From a virus, in the UHGV virus genome UHGV-1488538: a stretch of 39,106 bases of DNA. The stretch is one strand, 5' to 3'. Each line of letters begins with the position of its first letter. Within the stretch, counting starts at the first letter, position 1. Below are positions 3,538 through 37,540 of the stretch, piece by piece. The position numbers and the translations under genes are program-made. The notes under the pieces were generated by a model. The model was given only the letters and a program-made list of their open reading frames with translations, had not been told where the DNA came from and searched no databases.

Positions 3538-4455
3538 TTACATAGATGTTTCGTTTAATTCTTCCCGACGAACGCTGTAAACGTCGGTGGCTTTTGCCAG
3601 CAGTTCGTCATCATCTGAAAGTTTTTGTGCAATGTATTTGTAAGCCTTATCCAGTTCGGAGACAGTGCTGTAATTCATCGCTGCGCTGGTAAAGGCCATC
3701 AGCATTTCTTCTGGATCACGGCTATCCGCTTTACGCGTTTGCTCATCATGCTTTTTCACTGGTTTAGCGTTGATCAGACTGTTCATGCTGGATGCTGTGC
3801 CGTGCTTTGCCTGACTTCTTGGAGTTACGTCACGTTCAATAATGTCAGGTGAGTCGATATATTTACCTTCCATTTCCTCAGCTGTGGCTTGTTGACCAAT
3901 CTCCGGCCATGCTTTACGTAATGCCTGTGCCTCTGCGCATTTTGCCAACTGCGCATAAGGGCGCTTTTTCCACATGGCATTTGGTGCCGATGTGTCACGC
4001 CCCCCAGTTGCATAGTTCTCAATCCAGTATTCTTTGGCGCTAAACTCTACGATTTCCCCGCTTGCCATTCGCTTGCTGACGGTGTACTTACACCACTGAG
4101 GGAAGGTAACCTCCACGCCTGAAAGCGTTTGTGTTACATCTGGACCGAACTCAGGTTCATTAGCGCCTGCGTAATCGCCGGAACGGTAGGCCTGAATGCG
4201 ATAAAGTCCAATGCCAGGCATGACCACGTCGCGCCATTCATTCTTTCCACTCTTCGAGTCTTTAACACTCATTGGTACCAGGTGTACCGGCTTAAGAAGA
4301 GGATCGAGTTGACGCGCCCGGCAGTAATCGACTGCCATCATTACCGATTCATCTTTTGCCCCAGGGTAAATACTGTTTTTCAGAGCGCTCCATGTAACTT
4401 CATCGATTCCCCGAATAGCCAACACATCATTGGTGATTGCAATTTCGTTGCTCAT
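3538..4455 (-). CDS. RecT/Bet-family single-strand annealing protein
   Basis: Motifs GLYRIQAYRSG and WKKRPYAQLAKCAEAQALRKAW resemble the RecT/Bet signature; likely start ATG at 4455 overlaps exonuclease stop (ATGA); track ORF to 4482. Confidence 0.8.
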   Translation of the reverse strand: MSNEIAITNDVLAIRGIDEVTWSALKNSIYPGAKDESVMMAVDYCRARQLDPLLKPVHLVPMSVKDSKSGKNEWRDVVMPGIGLYRIQAYRSGDYAGANEPEFGPDVTQTLSGVEVTFPQWCKYTVSKRMASGEIVEFSAKEYWIENYATGGRDTSAPNAMWKKRPYAQLAKCAEAQALRKAWPEIGQQATAEEMEGKYIDSPDIIERDVTPRSQAKHGTASSMNSLINAKPVKKHDEQTRKADSRDPEEMLMAFTSAAMNYSTVSELDKAYKYIAQKLSDDDELLAKATDVYSVRREELNETSM

Positions 4456-5273
4456 ACGTACATATCCTGTTTGCGTGCCCACTCAGGGCGTTTAATAATT
4501 TCCACGCCGCCCCATTCATCGCTGATGCGGCATTCGTGATAGGTATTCAGATCCCGGCGGAACAGAGCGTGCCCGGCATCGACATCCGGCGCATCCAGCC
4601 CGAACACGCGTACCGGATACCGACCACAATCAATGCTTTCGCTCACGGCAAGAAAGAAAAAACCATGCGGCTGACCAGTAACCCTCATTGCGCCTTCGCG
4701 GTACATTGCGTCCTGCACGTGGTAGCGGAATTCCTCGATGTGACGTGCAAAACGGTCCATATCTGCAACCTTTTTCACGTCGACGATCACGTTGTGCTCG
4801 TTCAGCCATTTGTCTGGACGAATTCGGCACAACTCACCCGTCTCTTCATCGTTCCAGTACATTGATGCTTCGCAGTAACCAGGTGCTTCCAGCATCCAGC
4901 GTGCCGCCGGGTGAGCCATTGCGCTATCACGCATCAGCTCCAGTTTCCGCCACTGCTCGGCATCAAGTACCGTAATCCCCATATCCGCTACATCACGAAG
5001 AAATGCTTCTTCGTCAGCTTTACCTTGTTTCGTCCGACGATCGAACTTCGGTGAAACAATGAAGCGTTTGTCGAATTCTCCAGGCTCCAGAAGCAGACAG
5101 TGCAATGCGGTTCCCATATCCAGTGCAGACTTTTTCTCTTCGTCTTCTGGTGCTGCCTGAACCCATTTAAGAAGCGCCGGATTCTTGGCAACCATGTCCA
5201 GTTGCGACTTACTCACGCCGTCACCGGCGTGGTAGTCTTCGTTGCTGATGTCGAAATAAATTCCCGGTTTCAT
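4452..5273 (-). CDS. RecE-like exonuclease (PD-(D/E)XK)
   Basis: 273 aa, N-terminus MKPGIYFDISNEDYHAG typical of phage exonuclease VIII-like nucleases; partner of the annealing protein. Confidence 0.7.
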   Translation of the reverse strand: MKPGIYFDISNEDYHAGDGVSKSQLDMVAKNPALLKWVQAAPEDEEKKSALDMGTALHCLLLEPGEFDKRFIVSPKFDRRTKQGKADEEAFLRDVADMGITVLDAEQWRKLELMRDSAMAHPAARWMLEAPGYCEASMYWNDEETGELCRIRPDKWLNEHNVIVDVKKVADMDRFARHIEEFRYHVQDAMYREGAMRVTGQPHGFFFLAVSESIDCGRYPVRVFGLDAPDVDAGHALFRRDLNTYHECRISDEWGGVEIIKRPEWARKQDMYV

Positions 5274-5584
5274 GCCGCGTCCCTCTGTCCATCAAGCTGA
5301 TCCGCCAGATCCCAGCGCGCTATAATTGCCATTGCCTCGCGCCGGTAGGCATCCATCAGTTCTTCGAACTCAGGGCTGTCTTTAGCAGCCTCCAGCACTT
5401 CCTGACGAACGCCTTTGCCTGTTACAACGTCGAAAGTTGAGGACAGTTGATGAAGTCGGATGCTCTCAATCAGTTCAACTTGTCGGTCATATAGCTGTTC
5501 TGACAGGCGGTAGTCCTTGTCGAATGCCAGCATGATTTTTTGAAGATTTTTCTGCTGATTAACGTTCATTATCAGCCCTCCCAT
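5270..5584 (-). CDS. Hypothetical early protein (104 aa; possible start at 5569)
   Basis: ORF track; operon position between first leftward gene and exonuclease. Confidence 0.55.
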   Translation of the reverse strand: MGGLIMNVNQQKNLQKIMLAFDKDYRLSEQLYDRQVELIESIRLHQLSSTFDVVTGKGVRQEVLEAAKDSPEFEELMDAYRREAMAIIARWDLADQLDGQRDAA

Positions 5585-5724
5585 ATCTCGTTATCGTTGG
5601 CTACATCGCGAGCTTCTTTGCTGACGAAAGCCCACTTAATGCCTTCCTGTAAGGTGCGGAACTTCCAGCTCATGAATCCGCATGCAGTAACGCAGTACCA
5701 ACCGTTGATGATTTTCCACTGCAT
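5572..5724 (-). CDS. Small hypothetical protein (50 aa), first gene of leftward early operon
   Basis: Not in ORF track (<60 aa); ATG at 5724 preceded by GAGGT RBS; TGA-ta-ATG junction with next gene; product MQWKIINGWYCVTACGFMSWKF... Confidence 0.4.
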   Translation of the reverse strand: MQWKIINGWYCVTACGFMSWKFRTLQEGIKWAFVSKEARDVANDNEIWEG

Positions 5725-5743
5725 AACTTGTTACCTCGGTCTG

Positions 5744-5758
5744 TTACCGTTGAGGTAA
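5744..5758. promoter_or_regulatory. Operator TTACC-GTTGA-GGTAA (OL-like, over transcription start of leftward operon)
   Basis: Perfect 5+5 palindrome; lies just downstream of a TTGACA -35 (5781-5786, minus strand). Confidence 0.7.
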
Positions 5759-5805
5759 TAATTATGCGTATTTGGTTTGATGTCAATAGATATGAGTTAA
5801 AAAAA

Positions 5806-5820
5806 TTACCCATTAGGTAA
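5806..5820. promoter_or_regulatory. Operator TTACC-CATTA-GGTAA (OL-like, upstream of -35)
   Basis: Perfect palindrome about 20 bp upstream of the TTGACA -35. Confidence 0.7.
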
Positions 5821-5831
5821 TAGTATAGGCA

Positions 5832-5856
5832 ATAAAAAAGCCGCCAGAAGGCGGCT
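5832..5856 (-). terminator. Rho-independent terminator after repressor gene (GCCGCC-ttct-GGCGGC plus U-run on minus strand)
   Basis: 6-bp GC stem followed by T-tract on the minus strand, 20 bp past the repressor stop. Confidence 0.7.
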
Positions 5857-5877
5857 TACTTACTGAAGAGTATGATT

Positions 5878-6462
5878 TTATTGTTTGTTTTTTTCGTTCT
5901 GGTTGATGACAAATTCAATGTAACTTTCGATCTTTGCTTTCTCGGTTTCGGGTAACAATGCGTAGCGCGAGCGGTCATAGTTGATAGTCGCAGGGTCGTG
6001 CGGGTGAATCAGTAGTTCATATCCGTGACGCCCGAATGCGGATGCAACATTCTCCAGGGTGGAAATGGAAACGCTGACCTCATTGTTTAACAGGCGACTG
6101 ATTGTCACCTGGGCGACGCCGGATGCGCGGTGAAGTTTTCCCTGAGTTGAAAGGTCGCGGCTTTCACTCATCCAGCGTTCCAGGTTGTGAGCTGCCAGCT
6201 GACCAATGTCGCTTGGGCCGACAGGCTGAAAACCTTCCTGAGAAAGCGAGCGATCGATATCAAGCCAGTTACGGGGTTTATTGGCGGCAGCTTCAATTTT
6301 TCGCGCAACCTGGTCGCCGATAACCTTCTTGCCAAGAGCCCAGCGGTTTACCAGATTTGCCTGAGTTCCAAGTTTTTCTGCCATCCGCGTCTGAACACCA
6401 TTGAATTCACGGTCGATCAAGTCGTTGAGATTTTGCCTGCGGACGTCCTGGATACTTTTCAT
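5878..6462 (-). CDS. Immunity repressor, tandem HTH (XRE-like), no peptidase S24 domain
   Basis: 194 aa; two HTH-like segments (TRMAEKLGTQANLVNRWALGKK and ASGVAQVTISRLLNNEVSVSISTLENV); divergent from Cro-like gene with operator cluster between. Confidence 0.75.
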   Translation of the reverse strand: MKSIQDVRRQNLNDLIDREFNGVQTRMAEKLGTQANLVNRWALGKKVIGDQVARKIEAAANKPRNWLDIDRSLSQEGFQPVGPSDIGQLAAHNLERWMSESRDLSTQGKLHRASGVAQVTISRLLNNEVSVSISTLENVASAFGRHGYELLIHPHDPATINYDRSRYALLPETEKAKIESYIEFVINQNEKNKQ

Positions 6463-6517
6463 TTTCTGGAAAATCGCCTCATATATGAATCAGTAGATGA
6501 TTCAATTTAAAGCAATA

Positions 6518-6532
6518 TTACCCAACAGGTAA
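6518..6532. promoter_or_regulatory. Operator TTACC-CAACA-GGTAA (OR-like site 1)
   Basis: Perfect palindrome between divergent repressor and cro-like genes. Confidence 0.7.
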
Positions 6533-6534
6533 AT

Positions 6535-6549
6535 GCACCCCATAGGTAA
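6535..6549. promoter_or_regulatory. Degenerate operator GCACC-CCATA-GGTAA (OR-like site 2)
   Basis: One perfect half-site, 2 mismatches in the other; 3 bp from site 1. Confidence 0.4.
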
Positions 6550-6565
6550 CTATCCTTGATTTTTG

Positions 6566-6580
6566 TTACCTTATGGGTGA
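6566..6580. promoter_or_regulatory. Operator TTACC-TTATG-GGTGA (OR-like site 3, within spacer of putative cro promoter)
   Basis: 1 mismatch; sits between candidate -35 TTGATT (6556-6561) and -10 GAATAT (6579-6584). Confidence 0.55.
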
Positions 6581-6616
6581 ATATTTATTATCTGAAATAA
6601 ATATCAGGCAATAGCT

Positions 6617-6847
6617 ATGAGCGATAACGGACATTTCGATTTCAAAAAGCACTGGCTTGCACTTACTCCGGATGAGCGTGAAGCCTTCGCACAGGAAGCC
6701 GGAACGACGAGTCACTATATCCAGACTCACTTAACAGGTAAGCGCAAAATGCCAGGTAAGGTATTGATGAATGGGCTTTTTAAAGCCTGTAAAACAAGAC
6801 AATGGCTGCGCTCAAAAGCGGAACTGGCATACTTCTTCTACTCATGA
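6617..6847 (+). CDS. Cro-like small regulator (YdaS-like HTH)
   Basis: 76 aa; first rightward gene divergent from repressor. Confidence 0.6.
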   Translation: MSDNGHFDFKKHWLALTPDEREAFAQEAGTTSHYIQTHLTGKRKMPGKVLMNGLFKACKTRQWLRSKAELAYFFYS

Positions 6848-6869
6848 TATCTGGCAACAACCCTCTGTA

Positions 6870-6893
6870 GACCGCCATCCGGCGGTCTTTTCA
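6870..6893 (+). terminator. Rho-independent terminator after cro-like gene (GACCGCC-atcc-GGCGGTC-TTTT)
   Basis: 7-bp stem plus T-run; tR1-like position. Confidence 0.65.
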
Positions 6894-6902
6894 TATCTAT
6901 TC

Positions 6903-6917
6903 GTACCTCAAAGGTAA
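6903..6917. promoter_or_regulatory. Operator-like site GTACC-TCAAA-GGTAA
   Basis: 1 mismatch; immediately follows the terminator. Confidence 0.45.
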
Positions 6918-6997
6918 TAAAAAACCAAATCTGGTTGATCTTTTTTTTGTGTCAGCACAAAATAACCGTAATCCCAATACTAATAACAGGGCTTACC

Positions 6998-7198
6998 ATG
7001 GAAATCATTACACGTATTGATGCCGCAAAGCGCGGACTTAAACGCTACTACACCGGAAAACCATGTAAGCACGGACATGACAGTGAACGCTGGGTTTACA
7101 ACGGACACTGTGTTGAGTGCACCATGGAGTCAAACCGTCGCATCAGGGCAGAGATTAAGCAGATCATGATTAATTCCTCCCCACAACACTCAAGCTGA
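6998..7198 (+). CDS. Small Cys/His-rich protein (possible zinc-binding regulator, cII position)
   Basis: 66 aa from internal ATG; CKHGH...CVEC pattern; track ORF begins at 6935. Confidence 0.45.
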   Translation: MEIITRIDAAKRGLKRYYTGKPCKHGHDSERWVYNGHCVECTMESNRRIRAEIKQIMINSSPQHSS

Positions 7199-8928: not shown

Positions 8929-9273
8929 ATGAGAAAACAGATACAGGCTCTTGGTCGACTCAAAACAGGTCAGATGAACAAAACAGAATCTGCGTATTGC
9001 CAGCACCTTGAGCAGCGTAAACGTGCAGGGGAAATCGCCTGGTATCGGTTCGAGGGTATCAAGCTGCGGTTAGCTGATAACACGTTTTATACGCCAGATT
9101 TCGCTGTGATGCTCGCCACCGGCGAGATGGAACTGCACGAAGTGAAAGGTTTCTGGACCGACGACGCCAGGGTGAAAACCAAAGTCGCCGCAGATCAGTA
9201 TCCGTTCCGAATCATCGGGGTAACGGTTAAGCCAAAGAAAGCAGGTGGTGGCTGGAACATCGAAGAGTTCTGA
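8929..9273 (+). CDS. Hypothetical protein, possible PD-(D/E)XK-type nuclease
   Basis: 114 aa; TPDFAV...ELHEVKG pattern suggests D...E.K nuclease motif; assignment tentative. Confidence 0.5.
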   Translation: MRKQIQALGRLKTGQMNKTESAYCQHLEQRKRAGEIAWYRFEGIKLRLADNTFYTPDFAVMLATGEMELHEVKGFWTDDARVKTKVAADQYPFRIIGVTVKPKKAGGGWNIEEF

Positions 9274-15063: not shown

Positions 15064-15140
15064 TGGCGTGGCATGCAGGATTCGAACCTGCGACCAACCG
15101 CTTAGAAGGCGGTTGCTCTGTCCAACTGAGCTAATGCCAC
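15064..15140 (-). tRNA. tRNA-Arg (anticodon UCU)
   Basis: 77-nt cloverleaf folded by hand on the minus strand: 7-bp acceptor stem GTGGCAT/ATGCCAC, D-arm GCTC/GAGC, anticodon stem ACCGC/GCGGT with loop CTTCTAA, T-arm GCAGG-TTCGAAT-CCTGC, encoded CCA. Confidence 0.9.
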
Positions 15141-32255: not shown

Positions 32256-32891
32256 CTATTTTATTGGCAGCTTATGCTTTGAAATTATGGCCAATCTGTT
32301 TTGGAAGTTTTCCGCATCACCCCACAACCAGGTTTCACCTTTCTCAAGCTCTTCCTCGTTATTCATCTCTATCAGCTCGCATGTCATCATGTCGTAACCA
32401 TAGAGGTGGAGGCCAAGTTCCAGTGCGTCATACATGCGAGCCTGCCAGAACGACATGCCTTCATGAGTCTGGTTGCGATCTGACACGATGATATCGTACC
32501 GTTCCAAGAGGTAGTTCATGAAGATGATGCCGGCGAAATCATGAAGCACAGCACGATGCTTAGGCTTCTGGGTTCTCCATACCAATATCTGCGTGACAGG
32601 ACGGCAGTTAAGATAGCTGTCAGGCTGGATAATGACACGATTGTAATACACTACCTCTTCGGTGAGGTCATTTATCAATGACAGTTCAAAGTGCGCCTGT
32701 GGAATCTCGCCTTTCTTACGATCGTCTACACGGACAACGCGGTATCCAGGAGCCAGAGAAACGCCTTTGACATCAGATGTGACATCGTTGCCGTTCACTA
32801 ACTCTGAATACAGGGCGCGGTTGTCTGGAGTTTCGTTCAGATGAGCGAAAACCTCAGTTACCTTTGCCGGATTCAGCAGTTGTTGTGGCAT
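32256..32891 (-). CDS. Hypothetical protein (211 aa), immI-region gene of unknown function
   Basis: ORF track; own upstream operator sites. Confidence 0.6.
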   Translation of the reverse strand: MPQQLLNPAKVTEVFAHLNETPDNRALYSELVNGNDVTSDVKGVSLAPGYRVVRVDDRKKGEIPQAHFELSLINDLTEEVVYYNRVIIQPDSYLNCRPVTQILVWRTQKPKHRAVLHDFAGIIFMNYLLERYDIIVSDRNQTHEGMSFWQARMYDALELGLHLYGYDMMTCELIEMNNEEELEKGETWLWGDAENFQNRLAIISKHKLPIK

Positions 32892-33120: not shown

Positions 33121-33831
33121 TCAGAAGAACCCTGCCTTGTCGTTGATGTACTCCGCGTGGGTCTGGATATCACGCAGGCATTTGCTCACACCGACGATGT
33201 AGCAGAACATGGTGGTCAGCTCCGCCGCCGCGCCCGATACATCGTGCCCGTCTTCCTGTAACTGGTTCAGCAGATTCATCAGCAGTGAGTTCTCCGTCAG
33301 GCCGAGAACACCAGACGGCGAATGAATCAGGCTGCGGTAGCCGGGCTTCAGTGGGGCGCTGTAGGTTTTGTTCTCTATCTTCATCGCCTGCATTACTGCT
33401 GACGCCGTGGCGTTGGCTACCTGGTCGGCAACCATCTTTATGCGTTCTTCCTGCGGGAGCGAGTTTTTAATGTAACTTCCGGTGCGGCGGATCTGAGGAA
33501 GAACCTCACCTGTAACCCATTTACGAAAGCGGTAGGGGATAGTGCCTGGTGTCACTGCGTCGCGGCAGCGGAGGATCAGTGTGTAGAGGCCTGACTCGGA
33601 GATAATGTTGATCTCTTTTACTCGGCTGTCAAAAATTGCACGATGTTCATGCCCTATGTTGAACATAGACCTTTCATCATCATCCAGTTTTTCAAGTGCT
33701 TGGGTGACGTTTTGGATACGCAGCGCACTACAAACGTCTTGGGCTACAAACCATGGTTGGCCATCGATAATGATGGAACGGATAGGGTTAACAGATTCAA
33801 ATTTGAAGATGGCAGTTTGAGCATTAGCCAT
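33121..33831 (-). CDS. Antirepressor (Bro-N/KilA-N N-terminal domain plus C-terminal domain)
   Basis: N-terminus FKFESVNPIRSIIIDGQPWFVAQDVCSALRI is a classic Bro-N/Ant signature; start at ATG 33831 with GGAG RBS (track GTG at 33846). Confidence 0.8.
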   Translation of the reverse strand: MANAQTAIFKFESVNPIRSIIIDGQPWFVAQDVCSALRIQNVTQALEKLDDDERSMFNIGHEHRAIFDSRVKEINIISESGLYTLILRCRDAVTPGTIPYRFRKWVTGEVLPQIRRTGSYIKNSLPQEERIKMVADQVANATASAVMQAMKIENKTYSAPLKPGYRSLIHSPSGVLGLTENSLLMNLLNQLQEDGHDVSGAAAELTTMFCYIVGVSKCLRDIQTHAEYINDKAGFF

Positions 33832-33859
33832 GGTGGTTATCTCCACTTAGTGATTTTAA

Positions 33860-33890
33860 TCACCACCGCAACGCCAATTACTGGTGGTGA
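33860..33890 (-). promoter_or_regulatory. Leader hairpin TCACCACC/GGTGGTGA with alternative pairing to ACCACC at ant start codon
   Basis: 8-bp inverted repeat; a third complementary hexamer lies immediately 5' of the ant ATG. Confidence 0.4.
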
Positions 33891-33986
33891 ACTGGACAAG
33901 GTTGGCGTACCGGCCTAAGTGGTACCGGCGTCCTTTCGGACCCCTGCCCAGCCCACCATAATTCGGATATAGCTGTGCTTAACGCA

Positions 33987-34010
33987 TAAAAAAACCACGT
34001 CTGGCGTGGT
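33987..34010 (-). terminator. Intrinsic terminator within ant leader (ACCACG-ccaga-CGTGGT plus U7)
   Basis: Hairpin followed by 7 T on minus strand. Confidence 0.55.
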
Positions 34011-34026
34011 ATGCGCCACTTAGTAA

Positions 34027-34128
34027 CCCGGGACGCCAATCCCGGCACTGGATTTTGCCAGTGCCCGATTACTATGGCACAAGAGGAGTGCGATGTAAAT
34101 TTACTGCAAAGGTAAATATAAGCACTCC
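34027..34128 (-). ncRNA. Candidate structured RNA / cis-regulatory leader upstream of antirepressor
   Basis: Three hairpins (34083-34128 AGGAGTGC...GCACTCCT; 34044-34065 GGCACTGG...CCAGTGCC; 34028-34045 CCGGG...CCCGG) then terminator; no ORF. Confidence 0.4.
34101..34115. promoter_or_regulatory. Operator-like TTACT-GCAAA-GGTAA inside leader hairpin
   Basis: 1 mismatch. Confidence 0.4.
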
Positions 34129-34146
34129 TATTGGTAATTTCAAATC

Positions 34147-34419
34147 TTATCTGGTTTGTTTTCGTAATTGTTCGGCACAATAGTCGAGATGTGTTTGCAG
34201 ATCCTGCATAGACATCTGTGAGCTGGTGACGTAGTTAATCAGTGCAGTCAGTTCGGCAAGTGGGCCATCGACATTAAATCCATCCTTATCGAGATCCCGG
34301 AGTAATTTCATCAAGTGCGATCCCTCCACCAGTGACCTGACGCCTCCCGGCGTGTGAATCCTTTCGGTAAATCCCTCTTCCAGTGGATAGTGATACTGCT
34401 GCATCTTAATCTTCTCCAT
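34147..34419 (-). CDS. Small protein homologous to antirepressor C-terminal domain; LexA-controlled (candidate SOS antirepressor)
   Basis: 90 aa; about 45% identity by eye to Ant residues ~170-241 (IH.P.GV..L.E.S.LM.LL..L..DG..V.G..AELT, D.QTH..Y); LexA box directly upstream. Confidence 0.7.
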   Translation of the reverse strand: MEKIKMQQYHYPLEEGFTERIHTPGGVRSLVEGSHLMKLLRDLDKDGFNVDGPLAELTALINYVTSSQMSMQDLQTHLDYCAEQLRKQTR

Positions 34420-34424
34420 GCAAT

Positions 34425-34444
34425 AACTGTATATTTATACAGTA
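34425..34444. promoter_or_regulatory. LexA (SOS) box AACTGTATATTTATACAGTA
   Basis: CTGT-N8-ACAG with AT-rich spacer, near-consensus; overlaps putative -10 of small ant-like gene. Confidence 0.8.
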
Positions 34445-34481: not shown

Positions 34482-34496
34482 TTACCTGAAAGGTAA
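34482..34496. promoter_or_regulatory. Operator TTACC-TGAAA-GGTAA
   Basis: Perfect palindrome between LexA box and tailspike gene. Confidence 0.65.
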
Positions 34497-34600: not shown

Positions 34601-37063
34601 ATGACGGTCTCAACCGAAGTTGACCACAACGAATACACAGGTAACGGCGTTACGACATCATTTCCGTATACCTTCCGTATTTTCAAAAAATCCGACCTGG
34701 TTGTTCAGGTGTCTGACCTTAACGGTAACGTTACAAAACTAGTGCTGGATGCTGGTTATACGGTAACAGGGGCGGGAACTTATAGTGGCGGTGCAGTGGT
34801 TCTTCCGTCGCCGCTTGCTGCTGGCTGGCGAATCACGATAGAGCGTGTGCTTGATGTGGTGCAGGAGACTGATCTTCGCAATCAGGGAAAATTTTTCCCC
34901 GAAGTTCATGAGGATGCATTTGACTACCTGACGATGCTGATCCAGCGATGTTTTGGGTGGTTCAGACGTGCATTGATGAAACCATCTTTGCTTGCAAAAT
35001 ATTACGATGCAAAGCAAAACAGAATATCTAACCTTGCCGATCCATCACTTGAGCAGGACGCTGTAAATAATCGCTCAATGCGTAATTATGTCGATGCTGC
35101 AATCGCCGGAGTTATTGGTGGTTTTGGTTGGTTTATTCAGTATGGTTCTGGAGCGGTATACAGAACGTTCCAGGATAAGATGCGTGATGGTGTCAGCATT
35201 AAGGATTTTGGAGCTCAAAATGGAATCTTAAATGATAACAAGGATGCTTTTACAAAATCATTACATTCGTTTAGCAGTGTTTTTGTTCCGGAAGGGGTAT
35301 TCAATACATCTTTAGTTTCTCTTTCACGTTGTGGCTTGTACGGAACAGGTGGGGGAACGATAAAACAGTATGACAGAGATGGTAATCATCTGGTTTTTAA
35401 CATGCCCGATGGTGGCATGCTTAGTACGCTAACAATTATGGGAAATAAATCAGATGATAGTGTGCAGGGACACCAGGTGTCATTTTCAGGTGGCCATGAT
35501 GTATCGGTTAAAAATATCAGATTTACAAATACGCGAGGACCAGGATTTAGCTTGATCGCTTATCCGGATAATGGTATTCCGTCAGGTTACATTGTTAGAG
35601 ATATAAGAGGAGAGTATTTAGGGTTCGCAAATAATAAAAAAGCAGGTTGTGTGCTTTTTGATTCATCGCAAAATACGCTAATTGATGGTGTGATAGCCAG
35701 AAATTATCCTCAGTTTGGTGCAGTGGAACTTAAAACAGCAGCAAAATATAACATTGTCAGCAATGTTATTGGTGAAGAGTGTCAGCACGTTGTTTACAAT
35801 GGAACTGAGACGGAAACTGCCCCAACGAATAATATCATTAGCAGTGTAATGGCTAACAACCCAAAATACGCCGCAGTAGTTGTTGGCAAGGGGACTGGTA
35901 ACCTGATTTCGGATGTGCTGGTTGATTACTCTGAATCGGACGCAAAGCAGGCGCACGGCGTCACCGTTCAGGGAAATAATAATATTGCCAGTAATATTCT
36001 AATGACTGGGTGTGATGGGAAAAATGAATCAGGAGATCTGCAGGCATCTACAACCATTCGTTTCTTAGATGCTGCACGCAGTAATTATGCGTCAATATTC
36101 CCCATGTATAGTTCTTCCGGCGTGGTTACCTTCGAGGAAGGGTGTATCAGGAACTTTGTTGAAATTAAACATCCGGGTGACAGAAATAATATTCTGAGTT
36201 CTGCATCAGCGGTGACTGGTATTTCCAGTATAGACGGCACTACAAATAGCAATGTTGTTCACGTCCCTGCGCTTGGTCAGTACGTTGGGACTATGTCAGG
36301 GCGTTTTGAATGGTGGGTTAAATATTTTAACCTTGCTAACCAGACGCTTGTTTCTGCAGATAAATTCAGAATGCTTGCTGAAGGCGATGTATCTCTGGCT
36401 GTGGGAGGCGGTATAAGTTCGCAATTGAAATTATTCAATAGTGATAATACTAAAGGCACTATGTCGCTAATAAATGGAAATATTCGAATATCTACTGGAA
36501 ATTCAGAATATATACAGTTTTCTGATTCAGCCATGACACCATCGACAACGAATACTTATTCTCTTGGGTTGGCTGGTCGTGCATGGTCGGGGGGATTTAC
36601 CCAGTCAGCGTTTACGGTGCTGTCCGATGCGCGTTTCAAGACTGCTCCAGAGGTTATTGATGAGAAAATACTGGACGCATGGGAAAGAGTGGAATGGGTT
36701 TCATACCAGTACCTTGACAGGATCGAAGTGAAAGGTAAAGACGGAGCAAGATGGCACTTTGGTGCAGTTGCGCAGCATGTTATCAGTGTATTTCAGAATG
36801 AAGGCATAGATGTGTCACGACTGGCATTTATCTGTTATGACAAGTGGAATGAGACCCCGGCAGAATACAGGGATGTGACGGAAGAAGAGCATTCTGCAGG
36901 AGTTTACCCACTTATACAGACAAAGGTTCTGGTACGCGAAGCCGTCGAGGCTGGTGAATGTTACGGTATCCGTTATGAAGAGGCTCTGATTCTGGAATCT
37001 GCGATGATGAGACGCAGGGTTAAAAAGCTGGAAGAGCAAGTTTTGCAATTAACAGGGAATTGA
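34601..37063 (+). CDS. Tailspike with beta-helix depolymerase-like centre and C-terminal self-cleaving chaperone (S74-like) domain
   Basis: 820 aa; C-terminal LSDARFKTAPEVIDEKILDAWERVEWVSYQY... and coiled-coil tail match the intramolecular chaperone autoproteolysis domain. Confidence 0.8.
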   Translation: MTVSTEVDHNEYTGNGVTTSFPYTFRIFKKSDLVVQVSDLNGNVTKLVLDAGYTVTGAGTYSGGAVVLPSPLAAGWRITIERVLDVVQETDLRNQGKFFPEVHEDAFDYLTMLIQRCFGWFRRALMKPSLLAKYYDAKQNRISNLADPSLEQDAVNNRSMRNYVDAAIAGVIGGFGWFIQYGSGAVYRTFQDKMRDGVSIKDFGAQNGILNDNKDAFTKSLHSFSSVFVPEGVFNTSLVSLSRCGLYGTGGGTIKQYDRDGNHLVFNMPDGGMLSTLTIMGNKSDDSVQGHQVSFSGGHDVSVKNIRFTNTRGPGFSLIAYPDNGIPSGYIVRDIRGEYLGFANNKKAGCVLFDSSQNTLIDGVIARNYPQFGAVELKTAAKYNIVSNVIGEECQHVVYNGTETETAPTNNIISSVMANNPKYAAVVVGKGTGNLISDVLVDYSESDAKQAHGVTVQGNNNIASNILMTGCDGKNESGDLQASTTIRFLDAARSNYASIFPMYSSSGVVTFEEGCIRNFVEIKHPGDRNNILSSASAVTGISSIDGTTNSNVVHVPALGQYVGTMSGRFEWWVKYFNLANQTLVSADKFRMLAEGDVSLAVGGGISSQLKLFNSDNTKGTMSLINGNIRISTGNSEYIQFSDSAMTPSTTNTYSLGLAGRAWSGGFTQSAFTVLSDARFKTAPEVIDEKILDAWERVEWVSYQYLDRIEVKGKDGARWHFGAVAQHVISVFQNEGIDVSRLAFICYDKWNETPAEYRDVTEEEHSAGVYPLIQTKVLVREAVEAGECYGIRYEEALILESAMMRRRVKKLEEQVLQLTGN

Positions 37064-37135
37064 ACCGTAAATGGTGTGTTGTTGCGCGGTATACTTTTCC
37101 TGAAGCAGGGTGTTTGCAAATAAACGGGTTTCGTT

Positions 37136-37540
37136 ATGTCATTCCAACTAACCAATGAAACTTCAAATCAGTGGCTTAGTGTTAGTTCTCTTGCTGCGGT
37201 TATTGCAGGTGTCCCTCCGGAGGTTGCTTTGGGGGCTTTGGCTGGGGCGGTAATTTTTGTTACCTCTGCGGTAGAGTATCCTATTCGTCGTCGTGTACTC
37301 TTGTCGATGCTTAGCTTTCTCTGCGGCCTTCTTTTTTATAAACCAGCAGCATCAATTCTTATCGGCATAGCCAGCCTGATCCCTACCATCACGCAGGACT
37401 CTTTTGAAAAAGGGATTGTTTTCTCAGCTGGCGCATTCGTGTCAGCAATTGTTGCTGTGCGTATTGGTATATGGCTCTATCACCGTTCCGATAATCCACG
37501 CGAGTTAATTCCGGGGAGAAAAGACGATGGTAACGCATGA
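37136..37540 (+). CDS. Holin-like membrane protein (134 aa)
   Basis: Multiple hydrophobic segments; first gene of lysis cassette. Confidence 0.5.
   Translation: MSFQLTNETSNQWLSVSSLAAVIAGVPPEVALGALAGAVIFVTSAVEYPIRRRVLLSMLSFLCGLLFYKPAASILIGIASLIPTITQDSFEKGIVFSAGAFVSAIVAVRIGIWLYHRSDNPRELIPGRKDDGNA

Follow-up and report, generated by a model that had tools for sequence, protein, structure and literature searches.

A putative antirepressor-controlled immunity repressor of the SPC32H type, lacking an S24 domain, in a phiV10-like Escherichia coli podophage

The Immunity Region

The DNA analyzed here (UHGV virus genome UHGV-1488538; 39,106 nt, hereafter the window) is a phiV10-like temperate podophage of the epsilon15 group, genus Uetakevirus. 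Its immunity region (5600-7000) is about 98% identical to that of Escherichia phage phiV10, which has a genome of 39,104 bp, and other E. coli members of Uetakevirus are similarly close to the window. The gene order is that of phiV10 and of Salmonella phage SPC32H.

The repressor gene, rep, is separated by a 154-bp intergenic region from a divergent cro-like gene, and is followed directly by a strong intrinsic terminator (Table 1). Beyond the terminator, a PL-like promoter reads into the recombination genes, and the pair of palindromes that flanks it, with the same 62-bp spacing, is also found in SPC32H and phiV10. The rep/cro-like intergenic region holds an OR-like arrangement of three palindromic sites, and this three-site layout (spacing of 17 and about 30 bp) is kept in SPC32H, Klebsiella phage BUCT711, and Enterobacter phage Tyrion.

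Table 1. Features of the immunity region, the ant region, and the second antirepressor module, in window positions.
Feature	Position	Strand	Evidence and details
PL-like region	5744-5820	-	Promoter TTGACA-17-AATTAT, 5786 to 5758, 10/12 matches (promoter scan)
PL-like palindromes TTACCGTTGAGGTAA and TTACCCATTAGGTAA	5744-5758; 5806-5820		First abuts the -10; 62 bp apart, flanking the promoter
Intrinsic terminator directly after rep	5838-5857	-	8-pair stem (6 G-C) and T run; terminator in phiV10 annotation
rep, immunity repressor, 194 aa	5878-6462	-	ORF; ATG at 6462, TAA stop 5878-5880
Rep C-terminal module, codons 153-194	5881-6006	-	By homology, equivalent of SPC32H Rep CAD 'TetDloop'
Rep second XRE-type five-helix HTH-fold domain, codons 85-152	6007-6210	-	Pfam HTH_3/HTH_26, model, 5D4Z alignment
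Rep N-terminal HTH domain, codons 1-70	6253-6462	-	Weak YdaS/HTH_3; DNA-binding by homology
OR-like region, rep/cro-like intergenic	6518-6591	.	Palindromes 6518-6532, 6535-6549 (2 mismatches), 6566-6580
PR-like promoter	6563-6591	+	TTGTTA-17-TATTAT; overlapped by palindrome 6566-6580
cro-like small regulator, divergent from rep	6617-6847	+	phrog_35 'transcriptional repressor', E=5.6e-13
Terminator after cro-like gene	6869-6888
Second antirepressor, Bro-N and C-terminal Ant-like domain	33121-33846	-	Pfam Bro-N, E=1e-19
Leader of second antirepressor gene	33880-34143	-	Promoter TTGAAA-17-TATATT, 34143 to 34115 (promoter scan)
C4 antisense RNA	33880-33963	-	Rfam RF01695, 66 bits (gathering score 45)
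isrK-family RNA	33988-34064	-	Rfam, 67.7 bits (gathering score 50)
Operator-like palindrome TTACTGCAAAGGTAA in second-antirepressor leader	34101-34115		Perfect palindrome at the equivalent phiV10 site
ant, small antirepressor, 85 aa	34147-34404	-	E=1.7e-47 to PDB 5D50_E
LexA box AACTGTATATTTATACAGTA (plus strand)	34425-34444	.	18/20 of LexA consensus; 21 bases upstream of ant start codon
Palindrome TTACCTGAAAGGTAA, probable Rep operator	34482-34496	.	Between ant and tailspike gene; place kept in SPC32H and phiV10

The 194-aa rep product shows 100% tblastn identity to phiV10 p40, to ORF21 of phage vB_EcoP_ZX5, and to others. In GenBank (DQ126339), p40 is annotated as 'putative transcriptional repressor; two helix-turn-helix motifs (PF01381)'. 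Overexpression of ZX5 ORF21 lowered free phage to zero, and the transcripts for holin and for endolysin fell by 99.97-99.99% (Li et al., 2022; PMC9782041). The position of the gene, the annotation of the identical phiV10 protein, and the overexpression of the identical ZX5 protein support rep as the immunity repressor (CI-equivalent), and the first-pass annotation, which had called it so, holds on the same three grounds. That the ORF instead encodes another HTH protein, such as a toxin-antitoxin antidote or an accessory regulator, is very unlikely. The identical protein is labelled 'plasmid maintenance system antidote protein VapI' in one phage record, and Rep has weak matches to HigA, HipB, and VapB models, all far below the cut-offs, but no toxin gene adjoins rep, the neighbouring genes are without a Pfam family, and the locus has the classical immunity layout of three candidate operators and a divergent cro-like gene. 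Furthermore, Rep has an orthologue whose repressor role is proven genetically (see below), and an antidote reading sits poorly with the loss of free phage and lytic transcripts caused by the ZX5 protein.

Domain Architecture of Rep

Whole Rep scored 38.5 bits against Pfam family HTH_3 (PF01381) (E=1.2e-9; gathering cut-off 23), the match falling into two stretches, and YdaS_toxin, an HTH family, matched residues 21-61. When segments were scanned separately, residues 82-156 passed the cut-offs of both HTH_3 (26.9 bits, cut-off 23) and HTH_26 (26.3 bits, cut-off 22), residues 1-80 gave weaker, sub-threshold scores (HTH_3 16.0 bits, YdaS 20.5 bits), and residues 147-194 had no Pfam match. The NCBIfam search of Rep returned sub-threshold matches alone (RstR, HigA, TreR). 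For the N-terminal segment, homology was clear both to the corresponding domain of SPC32H Rep (E=1.6e-18) and to phage repressor PHROGs.

An AlphaFold2 model of Rep that drew on 26 homologues has a mean pLDDT of 77; it shows nothing but helices and coil, and no beta-rich domain. Helical bundles occupy residues 4-59 and 85-151, with a disordered linker at 74-83, and a long C-terminal helix spans 172-193. Against the PDB, Foldseek matched the model best to 5D50 and 5D4Z and then to XRE-type HTH proteins, further matches being NHTF, SinR, Stl, DdrO, and HigA. The second domain is formed by helices 85-100, 107-114, 118-125, 133-142, and 147-151 and aligns to 5D4Z (Rep 92-198). In the N-terminal domain, NLVNRW is the candidate recognition-helix motif, with N36, R40, and W41 invariant across the 26 homologues.

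Rep also carries a third, non-HTH module at residues about 153-194, which had been missed in the first-pass annotation. As a monomer this module was modelled at low confidence (pLDDT about 50-70; low at 157-164), and its residues Y162, L170, and F184 are invariant among homologues.

An origin of the two HTH segments by recent internal duplication was considered and rejected: BLASTP of residues 1-78 against 83-158 gave a 19-residue match (E=0.02) located outside the HTH helices. Judged by sequence, the two segments are different HTH-type domains and not a repeat.

Absence of Self-Cleavage Features

The Peptidase_S24 family (PF00717) gave no match to Rep even at E<=10, and none of the dipeptides AG, CG, and GG occurs in all 194 residues. 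No LexA or CI chain was found among the 50 Foldseek matches listed for the model, and the S24 domain is absent from all 86 Rep homologues in a large protein database, most full-length homologues having 190-200 aa. Rep is not an S24 repressor, since both the S24 domain and the cleavage site were looked for and are absent. The lack of an S24 or autocleavage domain had already been proposed from the sequence, together with a domain search as the way to verify it; the Pfam scan, the missing AG and CG dipeptides, the all-helical model, and the homologues (0/86 with S24) agree with the proposal, and the search yielded two HTH-like segments with no cryptic S24 detected.

Rep differs from lambda CI, P22 C2, and LexA, which are S24 self-cleaving proteins, in having neither this domain nor a cleavage site, and its oligomerisation module is also different from theirs. 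The likeness to lambda CI-type repressors lies in its role, in its position in the immunity region, and in the three-site operator region before a cro-like gene.

RecA-dependent self-cleavage of Rep through a cryptic or highly diverged C-terminal protease module is extremely improbable. Such a module would have to lie in the stretch without an assigned family that follows the second HTH domain, and no actual support for it was found; an S24 fold needs roughly 110 residues or more, and the stretch, of only about 40 residues, is too short for it. The results of the preceding searches, at the S24, dipeptide, Foldseek, and homologue levels, and the all-helical model likewise stand against it. In addition, according to Kim and Ryu, the SPC32H orthologue reportedly stays uncut in the SOS response, and what inactivates it is Ant, an antirepressor repressed by LexA.

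Another route that would dispense with an antirepressor is cutting of an XRE-type repressor by a dedicated ImmA/IrrE-type protease, as in ICEBs1 ImmR/ImmA and DdrO/IrrE. DdrO and similar XRE repressors are indeed among the distant structural matches of Rep, but no metalloprotease gene adjoins rep and none is annotated anywhere in phiV10, two antirepressor genes being present instead; this route, too, has next to no probability. A COG2856/M78 metalloprotease was not found in the flanking ORFs (5572-5724, 5270-5584, 6617-6847, and 6935-7198), all without a significant Pfam family.

Relationship to the Rep/Ant System of SPC32H

The lytic switch of SPC32H, formed by Rep and Ant, is the subject of Kim and Ryu (2013; J Virol 87:11775) and Kim et al. 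(2016; PNAS 113:E2480). Papers that cite this work describe SPC32H Rep as binding DNA through its N-terminal domain, dimerising through the middle one, and forming tetramers and binding Ant through the C-terminal one; the Rep tetramer is described there as targeting palindromic sites, and a tetrameric Ant as binding two Rep dimers and breaking the Rep tetramer. Likewise, a review citing Kim and Ryu (2013) states for several Salmonella prophages that self-cleavage of LexA leads to production of an antirepressor, which inhibits the repressor by protein-protein contact.

Rep of the window is homologous to SPC32H Rep (PDB 5D50_A) over its full length (phmmer E=4e-42, 42% identity; residues 1-190 aligned to 2-197 of 199). 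Identity is 54% in the N-terminal segment, 32% in the middle, and 43% in the C-terminal segment; the middle domain has thus strongly diverged. The two chains have in common the three-segment layout of N-terminal HTH, middle HTH-fold domain, and C-terminal module, the fold of the last being uncertain in the monomer model. The gene order is also that of SPC32H: ant is flanked by the structural module and the tailspike gene, and rep and the cro-like gene point away from each other. Near-full-length Rep homologues were found in 36 phage records; Ant homologues occur in 35, and the two sets of records are nearly identical.

By every sequence-level criterion, Rep of the window is a member of the SPC32H-type Rep family, that is, a Uetakevirus immunity repressor. 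What is shared with SPC32H comprises full-length Rep (42%) and Ant (88%), the three-module Rep, gene order, the LexA box, and palindrome spacings; the differences are that the window belongs to an E. coli phage whereas SPC32H is a Salmonella podophage, and that a module of isrK/C4 RNA and a Bro-N protein with an Ant-like domain (Bro-N::Ant) is present in the window, phiV10, and ZX5 but not in the SPC32H record.

By homology, the second HTH-fold domain of Rep would be a dimerisation module, DNA would be bound by the N-terminal HTH only, and the C-terminal module would serve both for tetramerisation and as the target of the antirepressor. The description of Rep as a tandem-HTH protein in the first-pass annotation thus needs qualification: Pfam and the model both give two HTH-like segments, but these are not two DNA-binding heads, the second being a dimerisation domain in SPC32H. 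We infer non-cleavage, tetramerisation, and Ant binding of the window Rep from a homologue with which it is 42% identical.

The Small Antirepressor Ant and Its LexA Box

Ant of the window is 88% identical to SPC32H Ant (76/86 aligned positions). Alignment of the upstream regions places the true start of ant at the ATG at 34404, which is preceded by GGAG; the ORF finder lists the ATG at 34419, which is an unlikely start. The LexA box upstream of ant is the only match to the full consensus in the window, with 0 such matches in 100 shuffles, and it is kept in SPC32H and phiV10; the sequence TACTGTATAAATATACAGT, read on the ant strand, is conserved in the window, phiV10, and SPC32H. It is only the full 20-base LexA consensus that singles out this site, the loose pattern CTGT-N8-ACAG with <=1 mismatch giving 15 sites in the window against 13.75 expected, which is not above chance.

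The Ant homologue, the LexA box, and the co-occurrence of Rep and Ant support a link between this type of repressor and a LexA-controlled ant gene. The ant-like gene under LexA control that had been postulated from the sequence corresponds to an 88%-identical Ant preceded by a near-consensus, unique LexA box; the accompanying proposal, induction by an antirepressor, gains support from homology to SPC32H Rep/Ant, from the same LexA box, and from the shared occurrence of the two genes. As judged from these sequence data, the agent that switches Rep off is almost certainly an antirepressor under LexA control.

Combinations of a non-cleavable repressor with a LexA-repressed small antirepressor, as here, are described for Gifsy-1/Gifsy-3 and for coliphage 186 Tum (Lemire et al., 2011; Shearwin et al., 1998). 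This likeness concerns how the system works and not family membership. Kim and Ryu are said to have found SPC32H Ant structurally distinct from the Gifsy and 186 antirepressors.

Candidate Operators of Rep

The palindrome TTACC-N5-GGTAA occurs at 17 sites in the window with <=1 mismatch, against 0.52 expected by chance. Together with one two-mismatch site in the OR-like region, 18 sites are counted, 15-16 of which, on a crude gene map, fall in non-coding DNA, which makes up roughly 9% of the window. Besides those of the immunity region, a pair 62 bp apart (8849 and 8911) precedes the gene at 8929-9273, and a site at 6903 lies just past the terminator of the cro-like gene, upstream of the gene at 6998-7198. 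Sites 12256 and 12274 are upstream of the terminase genes, 15463 is ahead of the head-gene cluster, and 216 is ahead of the integrase gene, while 32932 and 33033 are located downstream of the Bro-N gene and 34101 downstream of ant. Sites and spacings are the same in phiV10 and SPC32H.

Two sites with one mismatch each, at 34714 in the tailspike gene and at 37260 in a holin-like gene, are probably chance matches; in phiV10 the lysis-cassette palindrome is elsewhere than at 37260.

The (A)TTACC-N5-GGTAA(T) palindromes are most probably Rep operators that mark most transcription-unit starts, and their pairing fits a Rep tetramer bridging two palindromes. The Cro-like protein or another phage regulator could share or own these sites. 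A literature search for the operator sequence returned nothing relevant.

A bivalent repressor, in which both HTH domains contact DNA, the middle one reading a second half-site or helping to loop DNA, is improbable, if less so than the alternatives weighed above. Of the two domains, the middle one resembles DNA-binding HTH families (HTH_3, HTH_26, LacI-type HTH) more closely, and in the ZX5 study the second HTH was assumed to contact DNA (PMC9782041). This conflicts with the published descriptions of SPC32H Rep, which credit the N-terminal domains with DNA binding and the middle domain with dimerisation. Moreover, only one kind of over-represented palindrome was noticed near promoters, and its half-site is constant along with the N-terminal NLVNRW motif among Reps that are otherwise 42-100% identical. 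Operator binding by the N-terminal domains is the reading followed below.

The Second Antirepressor Module

Downstream of ant lies a second antirepressor gene, whose leader contains a promoter, an operator-like palindrome, and genes for isrK-family and C4 RNAs. The C4 RNA ends 34 bases upstream of the GTG at 33846, the earliest start codon open to Bro-N::Ant, and 49 bases upstream of the ATG at 33831, which follows GGAG and is the likely start of Bro-N::Ant. Residues 160-236 of the protein match 5D50_E (E=1.3e-13) and are 40% identical to the small Ant of the window. The protein is 81% identical to ZX5 ORF4, an 'anti-repressor', and the two do not differ over the aligned C-terminal ~150 residues; ORF4 overexpression decreased prophage counts about 1000-fold (PMC9782041). 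No gene of the Bro-N::Ant type was found in the SPC32H annotation. Bro-N::Ant probably feeds into the same repressor, Rep.

RNA genes of the isrK/C4 families also precede an antirepressor gene in immI of P1/P7 (C4 antisense RNA-icd-ant) and in isrK-anrP of Gifsy-1. The second antirepressor of the window differs from these systems in being a Bro-N protein with a C-terminal domain homologous to SPC32H-type Ant, and its control by RNA is putative.

A Model for Repression and Induction

The best explanation of the locus, and a highly probable one, is that Rep is the CI-equivalent, an immunity repressor without S24 that is controlled by an antirepressor through an SPC32H-like mechanism. As shown by sequence and model, Rep consists of an N-terminal HTH, then, past a flexible linker, a second HTH-fold domain of the XRE type, and a short C-terminal module; by analogy with SPC32H, the middle domain would form dimers and the C-terminal module would join two dimers into a tetramer. 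The N-terminal domains would bind palindromic operators near the PL-like and PR-like promoters and where other transcription units begin, and this binding would keep the prophage silent. Upon DNA damage, Rep would stay uncut, while RecA-stimulated cleavage of host LexA would free the ant promoter. The 85-aa Ant would then bind the C-terminal module of Rep, capture its N-terminal domains, split the tetramer, and remove Rep from DNA. The gene of a second antirepressor, with its Ant-like domain on a Bro-N protein, is preceded by a probable Rep operator as well as by the isrK/C4 RNA genes.

More tentatively, and with somewhat less than an even chance of being right, Rep may be the hub of a two-tier circuit, in which LexA-gated Ant starts induction, Bro-N::Ant, gated by the Rep operator and isrK/C4, locks it in or acts as an anti-immunity function against related prophages, and ~15 operators silence nearly all units directly. 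If such a circuit exists, silencing by Rep would not be limited to the PL-like and PR-like promoters. Parts of it may already be contained in published SPC32H/epsilon15 work.

Significance

The system is already known: the identical protein carries the GenBank note on two helix-turn-helix motifs and was tested in ZX5, and the SPC32H orthologue has been dissected genetically and solved structurally. Beyond correct annotation, the finding matters little. In the records of both phiV10 and ZX5, the small LexA-controlled Ant is labelled 'hypothetical protein', and neither source explicitly connects the repressor with this small Ant or with the structure from SPC32H. Modest material for follow-up is offered by a probable operator palindrome that recurs across the genus where nearly all transcription units start, and by a second, putatively RNA-gated protein with an Ant domain.

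The SPC32H-type Rep/Ant switch, in which SOS is sensed by LexA and an antirepressor and not by self-cleavage of the repressor, appears on sequence grounds to extend to the phiV10 group of E. coli O157 phages. Phages of this group are in use for reporter and typing purposes, which gives practical value to knowing how obligately lytic or non-inducible forms could be made; this would need deletion of rep, or deletion of ant together with the Bro-N::Ant gene.

Putative antirepressors of the phage

The window encodes two putative antirepressors of the immunity repressor Rep (Table below). The phiV10 and ZX5 records, like most related ones, label the small LexA-controlled Ant solely as "hypothetical protein", and in the ZX5 study the Bro-N protein alone was considered as antirepressor (PMC9782041). 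Between E. coli and Salmonella phages, Ant shares 88% identity, whereas its target Rep (5878-6462) shares 42%. This conservation of Ant far beyond that of Rep suggests either that antirepression cross-reacts among related prophages or that the immunity region has undergone mosaic exchange.

The Bro-N domain protein, with its C-terminal ~80 residues homologous to the SPC32H-type small Ant, is predicted from this homology to be a second antirepressor built on the Rep-binding fold of small Ant. It is 81% identical to ORF4 of ZX5, which has been assayed as an antirepressor (PMC9782041); SPC32H, in contrast, has no annotated counterpart. The stretch 33880-34143 (-) is a predicted RNA-controlled antirepressor leader of the P1 immI/Gifsy-1 isrK type, resembling those systems in the placement of isrK and C4 RNAs ahead of an antirepressor gene, here that of the Bro-N protein.

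Features of the window and positions of homologues
Feature	Position	Strand	Remarks
Small LexA-controlled Ant homologue	34147-34404	-	also L001 20543-20800; L006 2001-2258
Promoter-like site	34143 to 34115	-	ahead of isrK/C4 RNAs, abutting operator-like palindrome
isrK-family RNA	33988-34064	-	between ant and Bro-N gene
C4 antisense RNA	33880-33963	-	between ant and Bro-N gene
Bro-N domain protein	33121-33846	-	
211-aa ORF, phrog_1349	32256-32891	-	between structural genes and Bro-N gene
tRNA-Arg (anticodon TCT)	15064-15140	-	
RecE-like exonuclease ORF	4452-5273	-	
RecT-like ORF	3538-4482	-	
Operator-like palindromes, 15 bp each	216, 5744, 5806, 6518, 6535, 6566, 6903, 8849, 8911, 12256, 12274, 15463, 32932, 33033, 34101, 34482		

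Differences from related phages

The tRNA-Arg gene is shared with SPC32H and ZX5 but is not annotated in phiV10. The RecT-like and RecE-like ORFs occupy two distinct, overlapping reading frames (3538-5273, -), whereas phiV10 is annotated with one fused "recET" gene. In 34601-37540, an 820-aa tailspike is followed directly by a holin-like gene; the O-antigen acetylase gene that phiV10 and SPC32H carry at this place is absent. No Pfam family was found for the 211-aa ORF.

Operator-like palindromes

The palindrome (A)TTACC-N5-GGTAA(T) is over-represented ~30-fold in the window, where nearly all copies are intergenic. At the starts of transcription units the sites are often paired, 62 bp or 17-18 bp apart, and both positions and spacings are kept in phiV10, SPC32H, Klebsiella phage BUCT711, and Enterobacter phage Tyrion. 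The palindrome is probably the operator of Rep, and perhaps Cro uses it as well; such a role would imply that most promoters of the phage are repressed directly.
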